Assembly: GCA_963827275.1 (NCBI GenBank)
Contig: CAWHAA010000004.1
Coordinates: 416,001 to 480,000 of the forward strand
Direction: 5' to 3'
Origin: an uncultured Spirochaetota bacterium
GTDB lineage: Bacteria > Spirochaetota > UBA4802 > UBA5550
Length of the DNA: 64,000 nucleotides
The notes under the pieces were generated by a model. It had not been told where the DNA came from. It made no database searches and was given only the letters and a program-made list of their open reading frames with translations. How positions within the stretch are numbered: position 1 is the first letter of the stretch; each line of letters starts with the position of its first letter. Below, piece after piece: positions 48,420 through 62,436 of this stretch. A program made the translations under genes and the position numbers.

Positions 48420-49821
48420 CTATATGACCACGTTGATATGGCCGTCATGGTATGGGGCGGCGTTGGACGCGTATTCCTGCTCTATAACGTCGGCCTGCTC
48501 CGCCGGGACACCGGCGTAGCGTTGTTCCGCCTCGCGGTCGCGAAGAAACTCGCCCCGCCGGTCGTTCACGTTGACCTGGAACTCGCCCACCTGGACGCCG
48601 GATTCGCTCAGCTGCCGCCTGATGTAATCGAGGCTGCTCGTGAGCAGCTCTTTCGCCTCCTGGGTGTCAACCAGGAACTTGCCGATAACAACGCCGTCGT
48701 GCAGGTCGAGGTTGATGTTTATGCTCCCCAGCTCGCGGGGGTGCAGGCGCATGGAAAAGGAGGCGTTCTGCCCGTCCTTTACCGCCACCCTGGCATTCTG
48801 TATCATGCTCTCCAGGTTCTCCCTGAAGAGGATGTTTGTCCTCTGTGCCGCAGGCGCATCGGCATGCCGTGCGTTCGTTTCGGTCTTGAATTGATGTAAA
48901 GCTGAAAATGGCGCCGCTGCCCTGGCCGTCCCTGCCGGCATGCTGTCCTGCGCCGTCCCTGCCGGCCGCCTCGATCGCGGCTTCAATCCTGGCAAGGAGC
49001 TCTTTCACCGCGTTGAGCGGCAGGTCCTGCGCGGGTGCGGCCTTACGGTGCTGCGCGTCGTCCCGGGCTTCCTTTATTCTGCTGCGCTGCGATTTCATCC
49101 CGGCGAGGGCGCCGGCAACCTGTTCGGCGGGCGATCCCTTCATGCCGCCGGTTTCAAGGGCGCGGATCGCGTCTGAGAGTTTTTCAAGGGCCTTCTTCAG
49201 CGGCGTCCTGTCGCCGGGGGCCTTCGTATCGCGAAGCCGGTCATGCAGCTCCTGCGCGGCGAGTTTTACGTTGCGGAGTTCCGGCTGGTCTTTTCCTTTT
49301 AAGAATTCAATCATCCGGTTGAGCCCGTCGATCATATCGCGCATATCAGGCTCGCCCTGTTTTTTTTCTTTCCGCTCCGTTTTTATCCGGTCGTTTGCCG
49401 TTTCTTTGGCGCCGGCTTTTTTCATCTGGTTTTCAACATCAGGCCTGCTCTCAGCCGCTTTATTTTGCGCGTCTGCATTCGCGGTTTCCCTGGCCTGGTT
49501 CCCGAGCGCTGCTTTCTGTCCATGTTCGTCCGCCCTGCCAACAGCCGATGTCGTTTCGTCAGCGCGGCGGTCCTGTGTTGAGAATTCACGGGACGTTCTT
49601 TCTGTGTCATTCATGGAAACGGGAGTGTCAAATTTTGGAGATTCCTGCCGTATCGCAAACGGATCAGCATACTGACGGTCTGCCTGGAGCTGGTTTGTCA
49701 GCAGGCTGAAGAACCCGCCTGGTGATAAAAGATCCCGGGCGCCATTCGATGCGTGGGGAAGCGGTGCAGGGATGTCAGGCCCGTTATTCCGCATAAATTT
49801 TATGTTTTCGATATGAAGCAT
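48420..49821 (-). CDS. fliK: Flagellar hook-length control protein (frameshift near 48897)
   Basis: C-terminal MRLHPRELGSI...LRRQL-type T3S4 domain; low-complexity N-terminus in adjacent frame; position upstream of flgD-flgE. Confidence 0.88.
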
Positions 49822-50198: not shown

Positions 50199-50349
50199 GA
50201 CGCTGTTCAATTACTGATCTGTCAGTATTTGATATGATACTCGCGTAATAAAGTAACATATTATTATTGAATCCGTCCCGCCGGTCTGTAATGATGATTG
50301 AATGTTTGCTTAAAAAGTTTTTGTGCAAATCTATTCCAGGAGCTGGATC

Positions 50350-52527
50350 ATGAGTAATTATCTACCTAAGTATTCATCGTTGTTAGGAATCATACTCTGC
50401 GTTGTGCTGATCGTTCTCCCCGGCTGTGAAAATAATTCTGACGATTCGCTGCTTTCCCTCCTCGGCCTCGGCACCGGTCCGTCTAATCCCTATAATGGGA
50501 CCGGCCAGGGGGCGCTCCCCGGAGTCCCGGCTTCAGACGGCGGGAACGTATACCTCGTCGGCACCGGCATTTATGATATTACCGGTCCTGCCGCAGAGAT
50601 AGGGATGATGGGGTACGCCGATATGAACCAGAAGACCTCCGGTATCCACACGCGGCTCCGCGCACGCGCGTTCGTCATCGGCGACGGGAGAAGCAGGATG
50701 GTTTTCGTGAGCGCTGATCTCGGGATGATATTTCAGGTCATCAAGTCAAAGGTGTGCGAAAAAATAAGCCGGAACCCGGAGCTTGCGCGCTTCTACAATG
50801 AGAAGAACGTGATCCTCTCGGCAACGCATACCCACAGCGCCCCGGGTGGCTACTCCGGCTACCTGCTGTACGATGTCACGATAGCCGGGTTCATCAGGGA
50901 GCACGCGCAGACCATCATAGACGGCATATACAAATCCATACTGAATGCGCATAACAACGTAAAGCCGGGGAAGGTCCTGCTTGCGAAAGGGACGCTGGAC
51001 AATTGCGGCGGAAACCGTTCCCCGCTCGCGTATGACAACAACCCGGCGGCGGAGAAAGAGGCATATGGCAGCACGACCGACAAGTCCTTCACCCTGCTCA
51101 AGCTTGTCACCCTCGACGGCGAAGAGATTGGGATGGTCAACTGGTTCGCCGTCCACCCCACCTGCATCGGCCCGGTGAATACGCTCATCAGCAGCGACAG
51201 CAAGGGGTATGCCTCGTACCTGTTCGAGAAGGACAGGGGCACCGATTACCTCGCGACCCGCACCTTCGTGGCGGCGTTCGCGCAGGCGAACGCGGGGGAC
51301 GTTTCCCCTAACGTTGATTACGGGCAGGCGCCGGCCTACGTGGATTTTGCCCATAACCCGAGCCTGAAAAACGCCGTCCTCGGGCAGTATGCCAAAGCGA
51401 AAGAGCTGTATGACGGCGCCAGCAATGAACTGGCCGGCCCGGTGGAATTCCGTCACGAGTACCTTGACATGGGCAGCGTGTTGGTGGAAGAGGCGGGCTG
51501 CACCACCTGCGCCGCCGCCATGGGCGCGTCGTTCTCCGCCGGCAGCGTTGTCGATAATCCGAGCCCCGCGCCGCTCTTTCCTGCAGGCACCACCGTCGAC
51601 AGCCTGAACTGGAGTGATAACGCCGCATCCACCTTTCTTCAAACGTTCCTGAGCGGGATATTCGCCCCCTTCTGGCCTGCAACGCAGAACGCGGCATACA
51701 AGGCCTGCCACGCGCAGAAGCCTATCCTCATCCCCACGGGGCTCGTGTCCGTGAACCTGAAAAAGATCCCCATGACGCCCGAGGTGATGCCGCTCCAGGT
51801 CGTGAAAATCGGGAGCCTCGCGCTTGTTGCGGTTCCCAACGAGGTCACGACCATGTCGGGAAGGCGGCTTAAAAAAATGGCGCTTGATGAGCTTAAGACC
51901 GCCGGCGTTGATTCCGTGGTCATCGCTGCCATGGCAAACGCCTATACCTCGTATCTCGCGACCCCGGAAGAATATGCGACGCAGTCGTACGAAGGGGCCT
52001 GCACCCAGTTCGGTCCGAATGAGCTTGCCGCGTACCTCCAGGAATACAGGAAGCTGTGCCGCGCGATCGTGGACGGGACCGATATCGCCCCCGGCCCGGC
52101 GCCGCGGGACATCTGGAATGAAACAGTTGATTTTTCGGCGAAAGTCGTGCTGGACGATAAACCGATCGGGAAAAAATTCGGGGATGTCGCTACCCAGCCG
52201 AACGCGGCCTACACGCGCGGCGATATCGTGACCGTGCAGTTCTGGGGCGGACATCCCAATAACGATTACCGGACACAGGGGACCTTCCTTGTCGTTGAGA
52301 AGATCGTTAACGGGAGCGCCGTTGCGGTGGCACGGGACTGGGACCCCGAAACCACCTACCAGTGGATGAGGAACGGGGTGTCCGCCTCAAAGATAACTAT
52401 TACGTGGGACACCGGAAATGCGGCGCCGGGGACCTACCGGATCCGTCACCTGGGTAACTGGAAATCGGGATGGACCGGGATCATAAGCCCCTACGAGGGC
52501 GTGTCGAATACCTTTGCGGTGAAGTGA
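50350..52527 (+). CDS. Neutral/alkaline ceramidase, predicted lipoprotein
   Basis: DITGPAAEIGMMGY, LRARAF, SATHTHSAPGG, NWFAVHPT, AGDVSPN, EVTTMSGRRL, YEGACT; lipobox-like VLPGC. Confidence 0.95.
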   Translation: MSNYLPKYSSLLGIILCVVLIVLPGCENNSDDSLLSLLGLGTGPSNPYNGTGQGALPGVPASDGGNVYLVGTGIYDITGPAAEIGMMGYADMNQKTSGIHTRLRARAFVIGDGRSRMVFVSADLGMIFQVIKSKVCEKISRNPELARFYNEKNVILSATHTHSAPGGYSGYLLYDVTIAGFIREHAQTIIDGIYKSILNAHNNVKPGKVLLAKGTLDNCGGNRSPLAYDNNPAAEKEAYGSTTDKSFTLLKLVTLDGEEIGMVNWFAVHPTCIGPVNTLISSDSKGYASYLFEKDRGTDYLATRTFVAAFAQANAGDVSPNVDYGQAPAYVDFAHNPSLKNAVLGQYAKAKELYDGASNELAGPVEFRHEYLDMGSVLVEEAGCTTCAAAMGASFSAGSVVDNPSPAPLFPAGTTVDSLNWSDNAASTFLQTFLSGIFAPFWPATQNAAYKACHAQKPILIPTGLVSVNLKKIPMTPEVMPLQVVKIGSLALVAVPNEVTTMSGRRLKKMALDELKTAGVDSVVIAAMANAYTSYLATPEEYATQSYEGACTQFGPNELAAYLQEYRKLCRAIVDGTDIAPGPAPRDIWNETVDFSAKVVLDDKPIGKKFGDVATQPNAAYTRGDIVTVQFWGGHPNNDYRTQGTFLVVEKIVNGSAVAVARDWDPETTYQWMRNGVSASKITITWDTGNAAPGTYRIRHLGNWKSGWTGIISPYEGVSNTFAVK

Positions 52528-52592
52528 CGCAGGGCCGCCTCCTGAATCGCGGGCGGGGGACCGCCCGATTATATTAATGTATTCAGCCACTC

Positions 52593-52619
52593 AAAACCCC
52601 CGTGACAGGGGGTTTTTTT
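52593..52619 (+). terminator. Rho-independent terminator after ceramidase
   Basis: AAAACCCCC-GTGACA-GGGGG-T7. Confidence 0.85.
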
Positions 52620-52763
52620 ATTAATTAAAAAATTAATCTTTCATTTTTTAAAATACTCCTGTAAACAGGGAATGTACCCGGCCCCCATCCGCTCCCGGCC
52701 ACCGGGGCCGGCACGCGCGGCTGATCAGCGGGAACGGGACGCGGCAGTTACAAGAGGTGTGCG

Positions 52764-54398
52764 ATGAACTGGCTCTCACTTCCGCCGGCGCTCATGGCGG
52801 CGGTTTCAACCTATGTTGGCGTGTATTATCTCTGGCTGCATGTCAGGCGGCGGTCAGAACCGGAAAACCTGGCATTCGCCGCCGCCAGCCTTTCCATCGC
52901 CCTCTACGACGTGTTCTGCGCCGGGCTGTATAACGCAGCGAGCCCGGGCCAGGGTATCTTCTGGCAGCGGGGACAGTTCGCGATCCTCGCACTGTTCGTG
53001 ATCTCCGTCTCCTGGTTTATCTATCACTTCATTTCATACAGGTCCAGGGCCCCGTTCATCGCAATAACCGCCGTGATGTCTGCCTTCCTGCTGACGGGCC
53101 TGCTCGTCGATGGCGAGCTGACGCTGTCGCCGGCGCACCCCTTCGTGAAGGTGATCAGCCTCGGAATACTGACGGCGACCTATAACGAGGTGGATCCCGG
53201 CATCATCTATACATTGCAGTATGGCGCCATGCTTTGCACGGGAGGGTTCCTGTTTTATCAGCTGGTGAAAAGTTACCGGCAGGATGAACAGGTGTACGCG
53301 AGGCCCATACTGGTCTCGATGGTCCTGATTTTCGGCGCCGGCGTGAATGACGTCCTGGTCGGCGCCGGCGTGTATCCCTTTGTGTATCTTCTGGAATACG
53401 CCTATCTCTTCATCATTCTCTCCATGGCATACGTCCTCCAGGAGCGCTTTATCATGCTGAACCGCGAGGTGGAGGAACTGACGCTCCAGCTCGAGGAGAA
53501 GGTGGACGACCGCACCATGGAGCTTTTTTTGAGCGAGATCGCCCGCGACCTCTACGCGGGGATCTCCGGGGACGCGGGGGACCAGGCAGGGAAGGATGGA
53601 GCCGCCGGGACGTCTGTCCGCACCCTCAGCCAGGACGTCAGCATCATCATGAATTTCGACAGGCTGCTGAAGCGCTCGCTGGAAAAGGCGGTTGAAATAT
53701 CCGGTTCGGACGCGGGGTGGCTGTACATGGCGGGCGGCAGCGGGCTGGATCTCGCGGCGCAGACGGGAGCCGAAGCGCCGTCCCCGTATATTTCGTCGAC
53801 AGCTGCCGATGTCATGAATGCCAACCGGTATCGCATTGACGCCGGAAACACCGTCACGGGCGTGATGTGCCTCTTCGTGCCGGTCAACGTTCGTGAACGG
53901 GCCTTCGGGGTCTGCTGCTTCCAGCGGAGCGCCGCCCGGGGGGTTTACAGCGAGCGGGAACTGCGGGTCGTCACGGCCTTCATCGGCCAGGCGTCATCCG
54001 CAATGGAAAACGCGTACCTGTACCAGCGCATGGTCGACCGGAACGAGACCGCGCGCCGGCATGCCGTGACCCCCGGCATAGAGGAGAAGATGAAAAAGGC
54101 CATGGCCTATATAAATGAAAATTACAAAGCGAATATATCGCGCGAAGGGCTGGCGGCGTCGATCAACATGCACCCTGATTCTTTCGGCCGCTTCTTTAAG
54201 ATATACACCGGCAGGAAAATCAGCGAATATATCAACGAGCTCAGGGTCATTGATACGGCTGCGAAGCTCCGGGAAACCGACCGGAGTATCATCGATATCG
54301 CGTTTGACGCGGGGTTCGAGAGCCTCCCCACCTTCAACAGGGCATTCTTGAAAATCATGAAGGCGACGCCGACCCAGTACCGCGAGAAGGGAAAATAA
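52764..54398 (+). CDS. Membrane (multi-TM) + GAF + AraC regulator
   Basis: TM block, coiled coil LEEKVDDRT, GAF-like (LFVPV...QASSAMENA), ISREGLAA, AGFESLPTFNRAF. Confidence 0.9.
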   Translation: MNWLSLPPALMAAVSTYVGVYYLWLHVRRRSEPENLAFAAASLSIALYDVFCAGLYNAASPGQGIFWQRGQFAILALFVISVSWFIYHFISYRSRAPFIAITAVMSAFLLTGLLVDGELTLSPAHPFVKVISLGILTATYNEVDPGIIYTLQYGAMLCTGGFLFYQLVKSYRQDEQVYARPILVSMVLIFGAGVNDVLVGAGVYPFVYLLEYAYLFIILSMAYVLQERFIMLNREVEELTLQLEEKVDDRTMELFLSEIARDLYAGISGDAGDQAGKDGAAGTSVRTLSQDVSIIMNFDRLLKRSLEKAVEISGSDAGWLYMAGGSGLDLAAQTGAEAPSPYISSTAADVMNANRYRIDAGNTVTGVMCLFVPVNVRERAFGVCCFQRSAARGVYSERELRVVTAFIGQASSAMENAYLYQRMVDRNETARRHAVTPGIEEKMKKAMAYINENYKANISREGLAASINMHPDSFGRFFKIYTGRKISEYINELRVIDTAAKLRETDRSIIDIAFDAGFESLPTFNRAFLKIMKATPTQYREKGK

Positions 54399-54612
54399 TC
54401 CGGCGGTCATTGCGGCGAATCCCGTTTCAACCGGGATGATGAAGTACACCGGCCGATTCCGGTAACGGTTAAATTGATAGTTCGGGATCAGTGTCCGGTT
54501 TTTCCTGTGCTGCCGTAATTGATGGTGACGGCATGTTTCAATTTCTGATCCATCTGTTTTTGATAGGAAGCGGCCTTAAAAACCGCGTATAGTTGCTCTC
54601 GAGGATATACCA

Positions 54613-56214
54613 ATGACCGAAACGTATGTTGTCACCCACGATGTAGGGACCACGGGAAACAAATCGTGCGTTTTCCGTATCGGCGAAACACTCGAGCTTG
54701 TCGACTCATGCCTGGTGGAATACCCGCTCTATATCACGCCCGGCGGCGGGGTGGAGCAGAAGGCGGACGAGTGGTGGGCCGCGATATGCTCCGCAACGAA
54801 GACGATCATGGCGCGCTCGGGTATCAGGCCGGCGCAGGTCAGCGCGATGACCTTCTGCGCGCAGCTCCAGGGATCGGTGTTTGTCGATGAATCGGGCCGG
54901 CCGGTCAGGGACCCGATGAACTACATGGACGGGCGCTCGACAGAACAGATCGCACGCTATCTTTATAACGGCCTGGTCAGGATAGACGGCAAATGGAACG
55001 CGCTGACCGCGCTCAACTGGCTCCGTATCACGGGCGGGCTTGCCGCCACCGCGAAGGACCCTCTCTGGAAATACCACTGGGTGAAGGAGAATGAGCCCGG
55101 GCTCTTCGGGCGCGCGGTGAAATGGCTCGACGTGAAGGACTACCTGGTGCTTCGGTGCACCGGAACGTACGGCATGACGCACGATTCGGCGCACCTCACG
55201 TTCCTGTACGATACCCGTCCCGGAAGGCAGGGCTGGCACCGTGGGCTGTGCCGGAAGTTCGACGTGGACATGGCTCTCCTGCCGCCGGTGGTGGATTCCA
55301 CCGATATCGTGGGCGGCCTGCTCCCGGGCCCGGCGGCGGAGATGGGCCTCGCCGAGGGCATCCCCGTGTTCGGCGGCGGCGGCGATACCACGCTGACCGC
55401 CATCGGCGCCGGCTGCCTGGAGCGGTACGACACCCATATCTACGTGGGCACGTCCGGCTGGGTCTGTTCGAACGTCGACCGGCGCATGGTGGACATAGGC
55501 AATTTTCTCGCGTCGATCCTCGGGGCCATCCCCGGTTTGTATAACTATACCGGCGAGCAGGAGACCTCCGGGGCCTGCCTGAAGTGGGTGCGGGACCATC
55601 TGGCGCTCGACGAGATCGGTATGTACCTGGAGGCGCAGCATGTCGTGGAGAAGACGAAGGAATACGACAGCCTCTTTGAGTTCCTGAACAGCGTCATCAG
55701 CCGTACCCCCGAAGGCGCCGGCAACGTGCTTTTCACGCCGTGGCTCCACGGGAACCGGTCGCCGCGTGAGGACCCCAACGCACGCGGCATGTTCTTCAAC
55801 CTCGGGCTGGACACCGGCAAGCGGCAGATGATCCGCGCGGTCCTGGAGGGGATGGCCTTTCACAAGCGCTGGATCCTGGAGGCCATGGAGCGGAAGATCC
55901 CCCGGCGCGAATCCCTCCGTTTCGTGGGCGGCGGCGCACGGTCTGAAGTAGGCTGCCAGATCATGGCCGATATCACCGGCCGCGCCATCGAGACGGTGGC
56001 GGACCCCCAGAACGCGGGCACGGTCGGCGCGACGGTGGTGTGCGCCGTGGGACTCGGGCTCTTTAAGACCTTCGGCGAGGCGAAGCGCCTTATCCCCGCG
56101 GTGAAGACCTACTGGCCCCGGAAGGAATTCCGCGGCCTGTATGACAAGAATTTTGAAGTATTTAAGAAATTATACGATGCAAACAAAAAGCTGTTCGCGA
56201 CCCTGAACGGCTGA
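54613..56214 (+). CDS. FGGY-family carbohydrate kinase (xylulokinase-like)
   Basis: HDVGTTGNK, YMDGRS, DVKDYL, GGGD, VGTSGW, PWLHGNRSP, RAVLEG, VGGGARS. Confidence 0.94.
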   Translation: MTETYVVTHDVGTTGNKSCVFRIGETLELVDSCLVEYPLYITPGGGVEQKADEWWAAICSATKTIMARSGIRPAQVSAMTFCAQLQGSVFVDESGRPVRDPMNYMDGRSTEQIARYLYNGLVRIDGKWNALTALNWLRITGGLAATAKDPLWKYHWVKENEPGLFGRAVKWLDVKDYLVLRCTGTYGMTHDSAHLTFLYDTRPGRQGWHRGLCRKFDVDMALLPPVVDSTDIVGGLLPGPAAEMGLAEGIPVFGGGGDTTLTAIGAGCLERYDTHIYVGTSGWVCSNVDRRMVDIGNFLASILGAIPGLYNYTGEQETSGACLKWVRDHLALDEIGMYLEAQHVVEKTKEYDSLFEFLNSVISRTPEGAGNVLFTPWLHGNRSPREDPNARGMFFNLGLDTGKRQMIRAVLEGMAFHKRWILEAMERKIPRRESLRFVGGGARSEVGCQIMADITGRAIETVADPQNAGTVGATVVCAVGLGLFKTFGEAKRLIPAVKTYWPRKEFRGLYDKNFEVFKKLYDANKKLFATLNG

Positions 56215-56225
56215 GGAGGAACTTC

Positions 56226-56915
56226 GTGGGAAAATATGATGAATACAAAAAGATGGTCTATGACTGCACCATGGATCTGGTGCGCGAGGGCTATATACAG
56301 GGCCTCGGCGGAAACGTGTCGATGCTGGTCGAGGGAGAGGACGTGGCGGTGGTCACGCCGTCACAGCGCGAGTACCATACGATCACCATTGACGATATCT
56401 GCGTTGTTGACTTTGACCTGAAACCGGTTGACGACAACGGGCTCAAGCCGTCGGTTGAAACGGGCATGCACATCGCCGTCTACAGGAACCGGAAGGACGT
56501 AAGCGCGGTGGTGCACACGCACCAGGCGTACGCGAGCGTCTTTGCCATTATTAACACCCCGATCCCCGCCCTGTTCGACGAGGTGGCGAGCACGATCGGC
56601 CCGCTGGTCGAGGTGGTGCCGTACGGGCTGTCGGGCAGTCCCCAGCTCCTTGAAAACGTCGTGTCGAAGCTCGGCAACCGGGGGAACTGCTACATTATCC
56701 AGAACCACGGCATCCTGGCGCTCGGGGCCGACCTCCCGAAGGCGAAGCGCGCCGCCGAGCTCCTGGAAAAATGCGCGAAGGTCTATTGCCGCGCCCTTGC
56801 CACCGGCAAAGAGGTCACCCTCCTGCCGGACAACATGCGGGAGCTCATGGGGAAGATCGTCATGAACAAGCAGGATGCGGAGATCAAGCGGAAGGAAGAG
56901 ATGAAGAAGGGGTGA
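56226..56915 (+). CDS. Class II aldolase (fuculose-1-phosphate aldolase-like)
   Basis: GGNVS, TPS, KPSVETGMH, VVHTH, QNHG. Confidence 0.93.
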   Translation: MGKYDEYKKMVYDCTMDLVREGYIQGLGGNVSMLVEGEDVAVVTPSQREYHTITIDDICVVDFDLKPVDDNGLKPSVETGMHIAVYRNRKDVSAVVHTHQAYASVFAIINTPIPALFDEVASTIGPLVEVVPYGLSGSPQLLENVVSKLGNRGNCYIIQNHGILALGADLPKAKRAAELLEKCAKVYCRALATGKEVTLLPDNMRELMGKIVMNKQDAEIKRKEEMKKG

Positions 56916-56917
56916 TG

Positions 56918-56981
56918 TCCCTCTCCCCCGGCCCCTCTCCCATTAATGAAAGAAGAGGGTGCGCGGCAGCGCGGGTGAGGG
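56918..56981. repeat. REP-like CCCTCTCCC...GGGTGAGGG repeat inside the operon
   Basis: TCCCTCTCCCCCGGCCCCTCTCCC...AGAGGG...GCGGGTGAGGG. Confidence 0.55.
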
Positions 56982-57030
56982 CGATCAGCTTCATGACATT
57001 AAAAAAATACTTTATCAGCAGGAGTTTATC

Positions 57031-58499
57031 ATGAACACCAAACAGCAATACTCGATATCATACTGGCCCGATACTGAAGAACTTCAAAAGCGGCTGTACC
57101 ACCTTGCGAACGAGCTGCCCATTCATCAGATAAAGCGCGACAAGATGGATGAATACCTGAAGCACTTTGACACGAAGTGCGCGGGATCGAAAAAAATGAC
57201 CGACCGCGCCAAGGAGCTGATCCCCGGCGGCGTGCAGCACAACCTTGCGTTCAACTATCCCTTCCCGCTCGCGATCACGAAGGCGGACGGCGCCTACCTC
57301 TGGGACGTGGACGGCAACCGCTACCTCGATTTCCTGCAGGCGGGCGGCCCCACGCTGCTGGGAAGCAATTACCGGCCGGTGCAGGAAAAGGTGATCGAGG
57401 TGATACGCGAGAGCGGCCCCGTGACCGGGCTTTTCCACGAGTACGAGCTGAAGCTCGCCGAGCTGATCCACCAGCACGTGCCCTCGGTCGAAATGTTCCG
57501 CATGCTGATGAGCGGCACCGAGGCGGACATGGCCGCGGTGCGCGCGGCGCGCTGCTTCACCGGGAAGAAATACATCATCAAGAACGGCGGCGCCTATCAC
57601 GGCTGGAGCGACCAGTTCGTATTCGGCATGCGGGTGCCGGGGGTCGGCCCCCTGGACGCGCACGGCATACCGGCAGGGTGCTACCAGTTCACCAAGGAAG
57701 TGTTCCCGAACGACATCGACGCGCTCCAGAAGCGCATGGAGGAGAACGAAAAGGACGGCGGCACCGCCGCGGTATTCGTGGAGCCGCTGGGCCCGGAGAG
57801 CGGCACAAGGCCGGTCCTCCGCGACTATAACAAGAACCTGAGGGAGCTGTGCGACCGCTTCGGCGCGCTCCTGGTGTTCGACGAGGTGGTGACCGGGTTC
57901 CGCGTGGGCCTGGGCGGCGCCCAGGGCTACTTCAACGTGAAGCCGGACCTCACGGTCTTCGGCAAGTGCGTGGCGGGCGGCTACCCGGGCGCCGGCGGCG
58001 TGGGCGGCCGCAAGGACGTCATGTCGTGCTACGCGGCCGGCCTTGCCGGCGGGCCGGGCGGGAAGCGCGCCTTCGTGGGCGGCACCCTGTCGGCCAACCC
58101 GCTTTCGCTGCGCCGCCGGGTATTATCGCCATCAAGGCGATCGAGGAGACCGGCGCTCACCTCAAGGCGGGCGCGGCCGGCGACCGGCTCACGAAGGGGC
58201 TCTCTGATATATTCGAGCGGAACAAGCTCCCCTTCGTGGCCTTCAACCACGGCTCGATCTGCCACATGGAGACCGGCGCGGCCATGCTCATGGACATCAA
58301 GAACCCCAATATCTTCAAGGAAGTGGGGGCCCGGAAGAAGGTCATGGAGGAGATGGGCGCGGCGCTCACGGCGGAGGGGATCATCACCCTCGCCGGCAGC
58401 CGGCTCTACTGCAGCATGGCGGACACGGACGATGTGATCGACGACGCGCTCGAGCGCCTCGACCGCATCTTCAAGAACATCGAGGTGAAGCAGGGCTGA
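57031..58499 (+). CDS. Class III PLP aminotransferase (GSA-aminomutase-like), frameshifted near 58108-58127
   Basis: IPGGV, WDVDGNRYLD, SGTEA, AYHGWSD, FDEVVTGFR, DLTVFGK, GGTLSANP; removing two single bases restores LSCAAGYYAIKAIEE. Confidence 0.9.
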
Positions 58500-58624
58500 A
58501 CGAATATATGCCCGGATGCGGGGCTGCCGCGCGGCGCCGGCGCGGACAGGGGTGATTTTGTTATGGACAGGCGGGGCCTTGCGGGGTAAAGATTGAATAC
58601 TGCCAGGGGGGAGGTGCAGATACG

Positions 58625-59875
58625 ATGAAGGAAGAAGCTCAATACAAAGTTTACGGTTACCGGTGGGTCGTCCTGCTGGTGTTCGTAGTAATCACGGTAA
58701 TAATCCAGATGCAGTGGCTCACCTTCGCGCCGATCGCCAGGCAGGCCAGGGCCTTCTACGGCGCCACCGCTTCGCAGATCGACCTGCTTTCCGAGATCTT
58801 CATGTATGTGTTTCTGGTGGCGTGCATTCCCGCGGCCTATATCATCAACAGGTTCGGGATCCGCGTCGGGATCGGGATTGGCGCGGTTTTTACCGGCGTG
58901 TTTGGCCTTACCAAGGGGGTCTTCGCTGACAGCTACTCCATGGTGGTCGCATCGCAGATCGGGCTGGGGATCGCCCAGCCTTTCATTATCAGCGCTGTGA
59001 CCAAGGTGGCGGTGCACTGGTTTCCCATCAATGAGCGGGCGACCGCCGTGGGCCTTGCCACCCTCGCGCAGTTCCTGGGTATGATTATCGTGAACATCGT
59101 CACCCCGTTTATCGTGACCGTGGTAACGACGGCCGGCGTTGAGCGCTACGACCTGCAGGGCATGCTCCTCGCGTATGGCATCGTGTCGGTTGCGGGCGCG
59201 CTGCTCTTTCTGGTTTTCATGAGGGAAAATCCGCCGACGCCTGCGGGCCCGGAGGGAGACGAGGAGCGCTTCCTTACGGTCGCGGGGATCAGGCATATTT
59301 TCAGGCACCGGGACATGCTCCTGGTCATGGTCCTCTTCTTTCTCGGTCTGGGGATGTTCAACGCCATCGCGACCTGCATCGACCAGATCAGCGAAGCCAA
59401 GGGTTTTACCAGCGACCAGAGCGGGATGACCATGGGGCTGATGCTCATCGCCGGCATTGTCGGCGCCGTTGTGGTGCCCCCCCTCTCCGACAAGCTGCGG
59501 AAGCGGAAGCCCTTCCTGGTCGTTTCCCTCGCGCTCCTCATTCCGGGGATCATCGGCATGACCTTTGTGACGGAGTACCCCCTGATGCTGGCGTCCGCCG
59601 GGGTAATGGGGTTTTTCCTTCTCGGGGCGGCAGCCCCCATCGGCTTCCAGTACGGCGCCGAGGTCAGTTTCCCCGCACCGGAGTCGCTGTCGCAGGGCAT
59701 CATCCTCTTTGCCGGGCAGATATCGGGGATCATCTTCGTTACCGGCATGAACAGCCTCGGTATGATCGTGTCCCTGAAAATATTCATCGTCCTGGCGGCG
59801 GTGAACCTGTTATGCTCCCTGCTGCTGAGAGAATCGCCCAGGATGCTGGCCGGCGATACGCAGCGGAACCCGTGA
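58625..59875 (+). CDS. MFS transporter (FLVCR/SLC49-like)
   Basis: YKVYGYRWVVL, QWLTFAPI, AQPF, WFPINERATA, PPTP, AEVSFP. Confidence 0.9.
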   Translation: MKEEAQYKVYGYRWVVLLVFVVITVIIQMQWLTFAPIARQARAFYGATASQIDLLSEIFMYVFLVACIPAAYIINRFGIRVGIGIGAVFTGVFGLTKGVFADSYSMVVASQIGLGIAQPFIISAVTKVAVHWFPINERATAVGLATLAQFLGMIIVNIVTPFIVTVVTTAGVERYDLQGMLLAYGIVSVAGALLFLVFMRENPPTPAGPEGDEERFLTVAGIRHIFRHRDMLLVMVLFFLGLGMFNAIATCIDQISEAKGFTSDQSGMTMGLMLIAGIVGAVVVPPLSDKLRKRKPFLVVSLALLIPGIIGMTFVTEYPLMLASAGVMGFFLLGAAAPIGFQYGAEVSFPAPESLSQGIILFAGQISGIIFVTGMNSLGMIVSLKIFIVLAAVNLLCSLLLRESPRMLAGDTQRNP

Positions 59876-60083: not shown

Positions 60084-61641
60084 ATGATATCACGCATTAC
60101 CGGTTATTTTTTCAAGGCCTATGAAGACAGAGATTACGTCCTGCAGCAGAAATCCAGGATCATTTTTGTCATCAGCATAATAATACTCTGCCTTGTGCCG
60201 ATCATTATCGCGATGAACATTGTCACCGGGCAGGTGGCCTTTGAGCTGATTTTCCCTCTTGTCATGGCCATGGCGATTATCCTCATTGCCCTGTATTTTC
60301 TCAGGAAAGGATCGTACAGCATCGCCGCGCACATGATAATGGTAATCACCCTCCTGGCCGCGTGGTCGACGCTTTTTTTTGATGCCAGCAAAGACCCGGT
60401 CATGGTCCTGGATTCCATCGTGTATGTGCCGGGGATCCTTGTGCTCTCGTCCCTGGTCATTGTGGAAAAAAAATCAGCGATCCTCGTGTACACCGCGGCA
60501 AACACTCTCCTGCTGGGGGTTTTTATCTCCACCGCCGCAGGCAAATTCGCATTGAGCCAGGACGCGATCCTGGATTATCTGGTGGACAACGGCGTTGCTA
60601 TCATATTTGTCGGCCTCATCTCGTACCAGATATTCAAGATCAACAGGGCCGCGCTTGCCCGCTCGGAAGAAGCGGCCAGGAAGAACCAGGACCAGTACCG
60701 GGTGATAAAGGGCCTGTACGATTCGATCGGGGGCGTGACCGGGAAATTGACCAGCCACTCGGACGCATTGTCCCAGGAATCGAATTCCTACTCCACCGAA
60801 TCCCAGAGCCAGGCGTCGGCGATTGAGCAGATAACCGCGACGACGGAAGAGGTCTCGAGCGGGATGGACCTGGTGGTGGAGCATGTGGCGCGGCAGAACG
60901 CCGGGGTGCGCTCCCTCCTGGCCAATATAGAGACCCTGTCCGGTTCCATGCGAGGAGGTGGCGAAGCGGATACAGCGCTCCCGCTCCATAGCCGACGAGG
61001 TGTCGGACGTCGCAAACCGCGGCAGCGAGCTCCTCGGCGACATGAGCCGGAGCTTCTCCAAGGTAAACGAGAGCTCCGGGAAGATGACCGGCATCGTGGG
61101 CATGATCGGGGACATCTCCGACAAGACGAACCTGCTTTCGCTGAACGCGGCCATCGAGGCCGCCCGCGCCGGCGAGGCGGGCCGGGGCTTTGCGGTGGTC
61201 GCCGACGAGATCTCGAAGCTGGCCGACCAGACCGCGGCGAGCATCAAGGAGATCGACGGGCTCATCAAGTCGAACGTGGAGGAGATCGGCCGGGGCATGA
61301 CGAACGTCGAGGCGACGGTGAACACCATCATGCAGATCATCCAGGGAGTAACCAATATCAACGAGGAGATTGACGATGTGTCGCGCCAGATGGAGTCCCA
61401 GACGGACATCAACCGCAAGGTAACCGGCGAGGCGAAAGAAGTCGCCGGCATGTCGGACGAAATAAAGGGATCGATGCACGACCAGAAGACCGCCATCGCG
61501 GAAATAGTGAAATCAATTACCAACATTAACGAGATTACCCAGGTCTATTCTAATGGGGCCCGCACGCTGTCTGAAAAATCCAGGGACCTGGACCGGATGG
61601 TGCACGAGCTTCATGATATCACAAAAATCGCAGATGAATGA
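60084..61641 (+). CDS. Methyl-accepting chemotaxis protein (frameshift near 60951)
   Basis: TM N-terminus; [37 protein letters not shown] in downstream frame; deleting one C restores SMEEVAKR. Confidence 0.92.
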
Positions 61642-61725: not shown

Positions 61726-62436
61726 ATGGCCACGAGTATGGACAAGACCGATTTTACTGTAACACTGCCAGACGCCGCTATCGCCTTTTTTGACCTGGAT
61801 GAAACCATCACGGATGAGGACACGGACAGCCTCTGGGCCGTCTGGCGGTCGCACCGTGACCTCCGGGGGTGGGCCGAACGGGCATGGCTCATAAAGCTGT
61901 ATGGCGATTTCCGCGGCGGGCGCCTGAGCATCAATGCCTATATGAAGTACCAGCGCTTCCGCATCGGGTCGCTGACGCCGGACCAGTTCCGCGCGATGGG
62001 AAAGGAATTTTTCGAGGACACGGGCCGGGCGCATGTCTACCGGGCCGCCAGGGAGCTGGTCGGCGCGTACCGCGAATCGGGAAAAACGACCGTGCTCCTC
62101 ACCGCGCAGAATGAGTGCATCGCCGGGCCTTTTGCCGAGCACCTGGGCATGGACGGCATCATCGCGAACCGGTTCGCGGCCGACGGGGAAAGATTCACCG
62201 AGGCGCTGGAGCCGTACAGTTTCGGCGAGGGGAAGGTCCTGCTCGGCAGGAACTACGCGGAAGCGCGCGGTGTCCCGCTCGCGCGGTGCGCCTTCTACGG
62301 CGACAGTATTTATGACGCGCCGCTGCTTGAGCTCGTCGGCTTCCCCTGCGCCGTCAATCCCGATCCCATGCTGGAGGCCAGGGCCCGGCGCATGAACTGG
62401 CCGATCGCCCGCTTCAGCGGCGTTTCATCGCGATAA
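61726..62436 (+). CDS. HAD-IB family hydrolase (SerB-like)
   Basis: FFDLDETI, LLTA, GEGK, YGDSIYD, VNPD. Confidence 0.92.
   Translation: MATSMDKTDFTVTLPDAAIAFFDLDETITDEDTDSLWAVWRSHRDLRGWAERAWLIKLYGDFRGGRLSINAYMKYQRFRIGSLTPDQFRAMGKEFFEDTGRAHVYRAARELVGAYRESGKTTVLLTAQNECIAGPFAEHLGMDGIIANRFAADGERFTEALEPYSFGEGKVLLGRNYAEARGVPLARCAFYGDSIYDAPLLELVGFPCAVNPDPMLEARARRMNWPIARFSGVSSR

Follow-up and report, generated by a model that had tools for sequence, protein, structure and literature searches.

Sphingoid bases are degraded by a kinase and sphingosine-1-phosphate (S1P) lyase, with a branch for phytosphingosine that passes through a 2-hydroxy C16 acid and Mpo1 or HACL, as outlined in PMC10398889, and S1P lyase is given in reviews as the irreversible exit from sphingolipid metabolism (PMC11765627). 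Here we examine a six-gene cluster in a 64,000-nucleotide stretch of DNA (the window) from an uncultured Spirochaetota bacterium (GenBank GCA_963827275.1, contig CAWHAA010000004.1, positions 416,001 to 480,000). The cluster encodes a ceramidase, a membrane-bound AraC-type regulator, an FGGY-family kinase, a class II aldolase, a class III aminotransferase that uses pyridoxal 5′-phosphate (PLP), and a major facilitator superfamily (MFS) transporter. Judged from sequence, a sphingoid base is the likely substrate, by whatever chemistry; that phytosphingosine-type bases are deaminated, phosphorylated, and cleaved to dihydroxyacetone phosphate (DHAP) and a C15 aldehyde is a narrower proposal on which we are evenly balanced. 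If true, such a transaminase-kinase-aldolase route would give sphingolipid metabolism a second exit, bypassing the 2-hydroxy fatty acid step, and would provide a function for a large conserved family now labelled “xylulokinase” and “glutamate-1-semialdehyde aminomutase”. An earlier reading of this DNA by a model that saw the letters only (the sequence-only reading) knew of no description of this route, and our literature search, with most subscription journals outside its reach, likewise found none.

In eukaryotes, the kinase-lyase pair is SPHK or Lcb4 with SGPL1 or Dpl1, bacterial S1P lyases include those of Symbiobacterium (PDB 3MAD) and Burkholderia (PDB 5K1R), and in yeast a dioxygenase is required for the 2-hydroxy fatty acid step. 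The proposed route would share with the S1P-lyase pathway an initial ceramidase, phosphorylation at C1, a PLP enzyme acting at C2, and a fatty aldehyde product, and from phytosphingosine both would finish at a C15 chain. In contrast to the S1P-lyase pathway, the PLP enzyme here is a class III transaminase, the kinase has an FGGY fold, and the cut would fall at C3–C4, made by a metal aldolase that releases DHAP, rather than at C2–C3 to give phosphoethanolamine. The 2-hydroxy acid step of the phytosphingosine branch would not be needed.

The closest precedents for the second half of the route are L-fucose degradation (FucI-FucK-FucA) and the DHAP shunt, or 5-deoxyribose salvage (DrdK-DrdI-DrdA), as presented in PMC6079011. 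As in these pathways, a 3R,4R-diol ketose 1-phosphate would be cut by a class II aldolase to DHAP and an aldehyde, and the catalytic Glu and three His residues are kept; unlike in them, an aminotransferase replaces the isomerase, the kinase lies outside the FucK/RhaB branch, the aldehyde pocket differs, and the context is lipid. The new aspect would be kinase-aldolase catabolism applied to a lipid. A precedent for the first half is FumI of Sphingopyxis (PDB 6HBS; PMC3136697), which carries out PLP-dependent transamination of a sphingoid-like C2 amine to a 2-ketone, the reaction proposed here. The window aminotransferase, however, falls in a different branch of the family. Because the FumI substrate has a methyl group at C1, its deamination is not followed by comparable kinase and aldolase steps.

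In its gene content, the locus resembles the SphR regulon of Pseudomonas aeruginosa (CerN, SphA, and SphBCD; PMC5150637, PMC11398299): both combine an AraC-family regulator, a neutral ceramidase, a transporter, a sphingoid-metabolising operon, and a shared promoter site, with binding by the regulator putative here. The regulator in the window differs in having seven-transmembrane (7TM) and GAF input domains. SphBC, the best-studied bacterial system, is a cytochrome c and oxidase-like pair whose product is described as unidentified in PMC11398299; no SphBCD gene occurs in the window cluster, and no oxidase or cytochrome is among the recurrent neighbours of the kinase loci. The parts also recall methionine salvage (MtnK/MtnA/MtnB/MtnW/MtnX), in that aldolase-fold, RuBisCO-like, haloacid dehalogenase (HAD), and aminotransferase families occur together in paralogous modules. 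Unlike methionine salvage, these modules have an FGGY kinase in place of MtnK and no MtnA among the recurrent neighbours, and the aldolase scores below the MtnB cut-off.

Probable linkage of the ceramidase to the kinase operon

The six co-oriented genes called in the sequence-only reading are all real, with strand, coordinates, and families confirmed. The cluster and its putative control elements are:

50207..50237, + strand: putative operator site 1, 31 nt with a palindromic core, upstream of the ceramidase gene
50350..52527, + strand: neutral/alkaline ceramidase, 725 aa, probable lipoprotein (PF04734, 9e-154; PF17048)
52593..52624, + strand: intrinsic-terminator-like hairpin and T run, 3′ of the ceramidase gene
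52764..54398, + strand: membrane-bound regulator with 7TM, GAF, and AraC helix-turn-helix domains, 544 aa (PF16927, PF13185, PF12833)
54538..54568, + strand: putative operator site 2, upstream of the kinase-aldolase-aminotransferase-MFS operon
54613..56214, + strand: FGGY-family kinase, 533 aa (PF00370/PF02782)
56226..56915, + strand: class II aldolase, FucA/DrdA-like, 229 aa (PF00596)
57031..58499, + strand: class III PLP aminotransferase, about 488 aa, of the branch resembling glutamate-1-semialdehyde aminomutase (GSAM) (PF00202)
58625..59875, + strand: FLVCR-like MFS transporter, 416 aa (PF07690)

The full six-gene order is retained in 10 of 16 same-genus genomes; this order is not due to chance, though its retention within the genus is shared ancestry. 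A regulator homologue (cluster 4) lies beside the kinase in 47 fetched loci, some genomes having been fetched twice. We regard the cluster as a conserved, real unit that is probably co-regulated.

The two operator sites were scored with a matrix built from 19 sites found in relatives and no site of the window. In the 4.13-Mb genome, the site at 54538 ranks first (39.9) and that at 50207 second (39.2), with the next score at 30.1 and a shuffled maximum of 14.4. A matrix made from kinase promoters only places the ceramidase site second in the genome (31.7, next 30.5), and one made from ceramidase promoters only places the kinase-operon site second (28.8, next 25.2). Scores of the full matrix exceed 18 in 4 of 11 loci with a strong ceramidase and in 6 of 11 spirochaete loci with the aminotransferase, none of them kinase-linked, and in none of the 75 other loci (1.26 Mb). 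With a degenerate pattern, 31 sites were obtained in 10 genomes (36 matches versus 2 for the reversed control); of these, 19 stand before genes for the ceramidase (4), the aminotransferase (6), the kinase operon (6), the regulator (1), or FadL-like proteins (2). This pattern was derived from sites already seen in several of the scanned genomes, a weakness in the case, so its result shows rarity and not discovery. The FadL-like protein, for which no Pfam family was found, was named through the Atlas, and the second such gene (L394) by resemblance only. Four further copies of the site, scoring 19–30 (G000:C9:133750, C4:197735, C4:303287, and C5:719285), precede genes named by eye as acyl-CoA-dehydrogenase-like, sensor-like, hydrolase-like, and radical-SAM-like.

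Ceramidase and aminotransferase also keep company across genomes. Among 381 spirochaete genomes, 74 have both the aminotransferase and a ceramidase match, 17 the aminotransferase only, 14 the ceramidase only, and 276 neither, so that a ceramidase match is present in 74 of 91 carriers versus 14 of 290 others. The aminotransferase is found in 62 of the 67 spirochaete genomes with a strong ceramidase, which are kin and not independent; by family, six have both, two the aminotransferase only, and one the ceramidase only. In G003 (90% complete), ceramidase, aminotransferase, and aldolase were all not found, while the kinase, the MFS gene, and two lyases remain. A divergent branch of the ceramidase family (E about 1e-25 to 1e-40) was counted apart because its 11 loci have no site and no module gene nearby. 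Beyond spirochaetes, the module family occurs in Desulfobacterota (aminotransferase in 13 of 401 genomes of this phylum, which includes a Desulfobacterales bin), in gut Clostridia, and on a Burkholderia plasmid, and cultured carriers such as Butyrivibrio fibrisolvens D1 exist.

The terminator noted behind the ceramidase in the sequence-only reading, which had led it to doubt the connection to the operon, is real, with a hairpin and T run at 52593–52624. The connection is nonetheless supported by the shared site, the kinship of the kinase, and the co-occurrence. Ceramidase and four-gene operon, each with the site before it, are two transcription units but probably one regulon despite the terminator, with the AraC protein as the putative binder of the 31-nt sites.

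Kinase clade, lyases, and enzyme families

The sequence-only reading saw no S1P lyase in the window. This holds for the window but not for the genome, which cannot be considered lyase-free: two of its three PF00282 genes encode S1P lyases (E values of 1e-195 for the Symbiobacterium enzyme and 4e-149 for that of Burkholderia), and each lies directly behind a paralogue of the window kinase (37% and 31%). These kinase and S1P lyase operons, of two lyase types, are L181 (G000:C5:693355-696470) and L182 (G000:C6:137998-141102). A survey of 41 related genomes yielded 42 lyase-like places. The 27 of these with an E value of 1e-145 or better all directly follow such a kinase, and a coordinate comparison placed none of the 15 weaker ones by a listed kinase match. 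The epithet “lyase-independent” given to the route thus fails here, where it would run parallel to two lyases, and applies only in carriers such as G583, G788, and G824. These three genomes, of a family (f15) that we guess is probably Leptospira, have the kinase and the aminotransferase together with aldolases and ceramidases, and no lyase was found in any of them; the route, if true, would explain how they use the released antimicrobial bases.

Trees were made with FastTree (85 FGGY proteins) and IQ-TREE (56, from these and added rows), using hand-chosen rows with near-duplicates left out; E. coli and 10 genomes supplied the outgroups. One clade (100/97, 36 rows) unites the window-type kinases with those partnered by lyase or by RuBisCO-like protein and excludes all seven E. 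coli FGGY kinases, and the window-type kinases are a sub-branch of their own (100/100). An insert of ~11 residues is common to the clade, as are, for the most part, Lys and Trp at two of five FGGY specificity positions described in PMC3245297. At these positions the window kinase reads L-Q-K-D-W and FucK/RhaB G-V-F-D-I/L; the FucK-type kinase of the sequence-only reading is therefore replaced by a member of a separate clade that does not carry the FucK/RhaB signature. Assignment as XylB was also rejected (TIGR01312, 248.7 of 380 bits; outside the XylB branch). The kinase model has an FGGY fold (pLDDT 90).

Some members of the clade have other partners. In L348-L356, L360, and L361, a TetR gene and a saccharopine-dehydrogenase-like gene accompany a same-clade kinase, an arrangement conserved in nine relatives in which the dehydrogenase-like protein is possibly another way of amine removal. 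FGGY kinases are paired with GlpD-like FAD enzymes in L346, L347, L354, and L363. At G000:C4:536504-543038 and C2:29085-32559, GlpD-like genes stand beside genes that by eye resemble alkyl-DHAP synthase, likely an ether-lipid route, and a weak copy of the shared site (15.9) lies upstream on C2. Close homologues include an aminotransferase named from a Promethearchaeota archaeon (P0220, 67%) and a kinase named from Desulfoluna spongiiphila (P0106, 63%).

The aminotransferase belongs to a large family (7848 of 8000 scored candidates at 1e-100) and is present in 47 of 50 other kinase-carrying genomes, even where unlinked (50 of 80 loci). A paralogous module joins kinase, aminotransferase, and RuBisCO-like protein. 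In six of seven such loci (L170-L175; not L176), an S1P lyase and the aminotransferase paralogue lie in one co-oriented run, with a RuBisCO-like gene called in four of the six, and in L267, from the phylum of the Desulfobacterales bin, the paralogous module encloses a ceramidase, with the MFS gene on one side of it and the kinase gene on the other. The loci with the lyase belong to same-genus relatives. The sequence-only reading had asked whether orthologous operons ever accompany sphingolipid genes; by these neighbourhoods, the modules co-occur with S1P lyase or ceramidase, an outcome that favours the proposal. The kinase-aminotransferase-RuBisCO-like module was seen in L170-L177, L241, L242, and L267-L271, often with TetR, a 357-aa gene, and aldolase; no Pfam family was found for the 357-aa gene behind the RuBisCO-like gene, and a new reaction of the RuBisCO-like protein is possible.

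Lipid-type neighbours recur as well. Kinase, MFS, and HAD genes face a ceramidase in L025, L093, and L097, and unlinked aminotransferase-aldolase genes adjoin an acyl-CoA synthetase in L233-L236, together with beta-oxidation genes in L235-L236. A Burkholderia ambifaria plasmid carries kinase, aldolase, aminotransferase, degenerate aldolase, short-chain dehydrogenase/reductase (SDR), and aldehyde dehydrogenase genes adjoining an Mpo1-like gene, and L399 combines this set of parts with an Mpo1-like gene. In yeast, Mpo1 acts on 2-hydroxy fatty acids during the breakdown of phytosphingosine, as PMC10398889 reports; the Mpo1-like neighbours are weak support because the bacterial copies are short. 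A second, degenerate aldolase without the catalytic Glu and metal histidines lies beside an intact one in L235-L238, L399, L401, L402, L407, and L416, the two being possibly a heteromer.

The ceramidase has both Pfam domains at full length (PF04734, 1-509/509; PF17048, 1-169/169) and matches Pseudomonas neutral ceramidase 2zws at 7e-129. All seven compared positions are identical (H160, H162, R223, H269, E498, Y535, and Y547 for 2zws H97, H99, R160, H204, E411, Y448, and Y460), which we take to be catalytic residues and zinc ligands. Its score is under the NCBIfam equivalog cut-off (NF041649, 443.6 of 1200 bits), and its N-terminus, a hydrophobic stretch followed by Cys, suggests a probable lipoprotein.

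The best solved relatives of the aldolase are FucA (3e-28) and 6btd (8e-28). It retains the metal ligands H97, H99, and H161, E78 (FucA E73), and the phosphate-pocket residues G29, N30, S46, and S76, and has D118, S136, V212, and K215 at FucA Y113, F131, F206, and Y209, presumably the aldehyde pocket. The changes of F131 to Ser and Y113 to Asp may open this pocket. Two other assignments were rejected: an AraD epimerase, from E78 instead of Asp at the FucA E73 position and Ser at the D120 position, where AraD presumably has a functional acid, and an MtnB dehydratase, from TIGR03328 (82.6 of 137 bits) and the variable residue at the Y113 position, with no direct MtnB alignment made.

The aminotransferase has a helical N-terminal extension of 50 residues, and its PLP lysine K312 and D284 are invariant across 19 aligned members. 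It is closer to GSAM (2e-62) than to FumI (3e-28), and a model of the 93%-identical L070 orthologue has fold type I with a TM score of 0.76 to GSAM. HemL/GSAM itself was rejected (248.5 of 527 bits, scored on the frameshifted reading frame discussed below); a separate homologue (38% identity) on C6 may be the HemL of this genome. Fold searches with the kinase and aminotransferase models returned generic FGGY and GSAM matches only. The FLVCR-like identity of the MFS protein was borne out, with FLVCR2 (1.6e-34) and FLVCR1 (4e-31) as best solved relatives, the next family at 2e-7, and FLVCR1/2 accounting for five of seven structure matches, all at 1e-30 or better.

Proposed route and alternative readings

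We propose that the cluster would be the ceramide-use regulon of an uncultured spirochaete from sediments, digesters, and wastewater. The exported ceramidase would split ceramides from plants, fungi, or animal debris into fatty acid and sphingoid base, the membrane AraC protein would sense a pathway lipid and activate ceramidase and four-gene operon via one shared site, and the MFS protein would import the base. In either order, the aminotransferase would remove the C2 amine and the FGGY kinase phosphorylate C1. The aldolase would then cut C3–C4 of the 2-keto-3,4-diol 1-phosphate derived from 4-hydroxy bases such as phytosphingosine, giving DHAP and pentadecanal, which would be oxidised and enter beta-oxidation; the genome has two aldehyde dehydrogenase homologues elsewhere. 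The route would run beside, and not instead of, the two kinase-plus-S1P-lyase operons, with bases lacking a C4 hydroxyl going to the lyases or, in relatives, perhaps to a RuBisCO-like branch. The scheme builds on observed gene identities, unbroken sets of catalytic residues, the shared site, the kinship of the kinase, and co-occurrence; within it we infer every substrate, direction, and step order and the identity of the site-binding protein. Phosphorylation may precede transamination: kinase-first is as likely as transamination-first because the lyase-partnered kinases must act on the intact amino-diol.

The proposed chemistry fits the stereochemistry and the conserved catalytic residues. By our own derivation, deamination of D-ribo-phytosphingosine (2S,3S,4R) at C2 gives a 3R,4R ketodiol, the configuration of FucA and DrdA substrates as given in PMC6079011, and FumI, which deaminates C2 of a sphingoid-like chain in the account of PMC3136697, is a precedent for the aminotransferase.

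Several observations weigh against this proposal. The route cannot take sphinganine or sphingosine, because both are without a C4 hydroxyl, and the functions of the enzymes and the expression of the pathway are predictions from sequence. The cargo of FLVCR proteins is small amino alcohols. Few families underlie the co-occurrence counts, with 45 of the 91 carriers belonging to a single one; 5 of 21 kinase-carrying relatives are without ceramidase, a strong ceramidase was found in 1 of 11 Desulfobacterota-phylum carriers tested, and a ceramidase match better than 1e-10 in none of 25 gut Clostridia carriers. The matrix scan did not find the shared site at lyase operons, gut loci, or Desulfobacterota-phylum loci, nor in 19 of 20 loci of more distant spirochaetes, and 12 of the 31 pattern sites precede unrelated genes. 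The clade insert of the window kinase, tested as an amphipathic membrane anchor, is not clearly amphipathic (moment 0.14-0.24) and gives that idea no clear support. GlpD-like and saccharopine-dehydrogenase-like genes are further partners of the kinase clade, whose GlpD-paired members carry the M-Q-K-D-W signature of the window type. Finally, the aldolase is without FucA Y113, F131, and Y209 and falls below every curated cut-off (FucA-type, 131 of 264 bits).

The strongest alternative, though an unlikely one, is that the operon degrades a soluble amino-polyol or small amino alcohol, with the ceramidase link secondary or specific to spirochaetes. Most tested non-spirochaete carriers are without a strong ceramidase, the gut copies adjoin sugar-type neighbours (glycoside hydrolases, PfkB kinases, and an iron alcohol dehydrogenase), choline/ethanolamine carriers are the nearest relatives of the transporter, and the kinase has in common with XylB a Met at its first specificity position. 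A soluble substrate is nevertheless hard to reconcile with the shared site on unlinked ceramidase genes, with a kinase clade that has lyase partners and stands apart from all tested sugar kinases, or with the FadL-like, acyl-CoA, and Mpo1-like neighbours, and no sugar isomerase is among the recurrent neighbours.

Next, and also unlikely, is a sphingoid substrate handled by different chemistry, in which the protein with the aldolase fold dehydrates the 2-keto 1-phosphate or isomerises it, in the manner of MtnB in methionine salvage, with a RuBisCO-like enolase and HAD phosphatase acting next in some lineages. The RuBisCO-like protein that follows the aminotransferase in the paralogous module is closest to 2,3-diketo-5-methylthiopentyl 1-phosphate (DK-MTP-1-P) enolase (1.9e-71), the aldolase is also adjacent in the L267-L271 modules, the HAD phosphatase recurs, and the Asp of the window aldolase occupies the FucA Y113 position, where MtnB presumably has an acid. 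Yet this Asp is not invariant (G, A, P, K, or E in other members), FucA-type profiles and structures outscore MtnB (131 versus 83 bits), and this genome has no match to the RuBisCO-like protein.

An improbable alternative is that the module handles a different lipid-linked head group of the amino-polyol or glycerol type, for instance that of ether lipids, amino-hopanepolyols, or fumonisin-like chains, from which the ceramidase homologue takes off the N-acyl group. The GlpD-partnered kinases with the same signature and the non-ceramide substrate of FumI favour it; the ceramidase, however, retains 7 of 7 compared Pseudomonas active-site positions, the aminotransferase is far nearer GSAM than FumI, and a C2 amine next to a free C1 hydroxyl accounts for aminotransferase, kinase, and lyase kinship together. 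Also improbable is the reverse pathway, which would condense DHAP with a fatty aldehyde and then introduce the amine and strip off the phosphate, so that a phytosphingosine-like base arises with no serine palmitoyltransferase and is acylated by the ceramidase. Aldol reactions and transaminations can run in either direction and the HAD phosphatase recurs, but the kinase and not the phosphatase is core, the ceramidase looks exported, and a glutamate-dehydrogenase-like gene (14 fetched loci) and the aldehyde dehydrogenase of the Burkholderia operon suit catabolism.

Returning to catabolism of sphingoid bases, a broader reading can be put forward tentatively. Bacteria would have a widespread, oxygen-independent second sphingolipid exit in which sphingoid-base kinases of one FGGY clade feed three interchangeable back ends: S1P lyase, transaminase with aldolase, and transaminase with RuBisCO-like protein. 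For bases with no hydroxyl at C4, this third back end could cleave or rearrange the 2-keto-3-hydroxy 1-phosphate, at its boldest by RuBisCO-type C2–C3 cleavage to a fatty acid, and in gut Clostridia that have no ceramidase the aldolase branch would serve for free bases that are dietary or released by the host.

Assembly errors and possible accessory genes

Two extra bases, near 58107 and 58126, shift the reading frame of the aminotransferase in this assembly only, a fault that the sequence-only reading does not mention. Both bases are absent from the contigs of four of four independent runs (four studies), so the frameshift is an assembly error and a pseudogene is ruled out; an intact, 93% identical orthologue is present in L070. 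The same four runs are also without single extra bases at 48896 and 60951, one-base assembly errors that split a flagellar gene (window 48420-49821) and a chemoreceptor gene (60084-61641), so other apparent frameshifts in this genome deserve distrust. A 63-base stretch between aldolase and aminotransferase (window 56912-56976) is missing in three of the four runs and is a small strain-variable insert. Metagenomes that contain this DNA come from freshwater, sediment, bioreactor, manure, wastewater, and soil, and no RNA data set is among those listed.

A 980-aa glutamate-dehydrogenase-like gene lies near the operon in the 14 fetched loci noted above (L006, L015, L072, L078, L101, and others), often directly after the MFS gene, and its product could regenerate the amino acceptor; a tblastn search did not find it in this genome. 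Two possible accessory genes follow the cluster, beyond the end of the region described in the sequence-only reading:

60084..61641, + strand: chemoreceptor (methyl-accepting chemotaxis protein, MCP), possible accessory (cluster 5, PF00015)
61726..62436, + strand: HAD phosphatase, possible accessory (PF12710)

Homologues of the chemoreceptor (cluster 5, PF00015) occur in 28 fetched kinase loci, and it may be a hitchhiker because such receptors are numerous. Homologues of the HAD phosphatase occur in 21 fetched kinase loci, some genomes being counted twice, and also adjoin the module in another phylum (L262 and L263).

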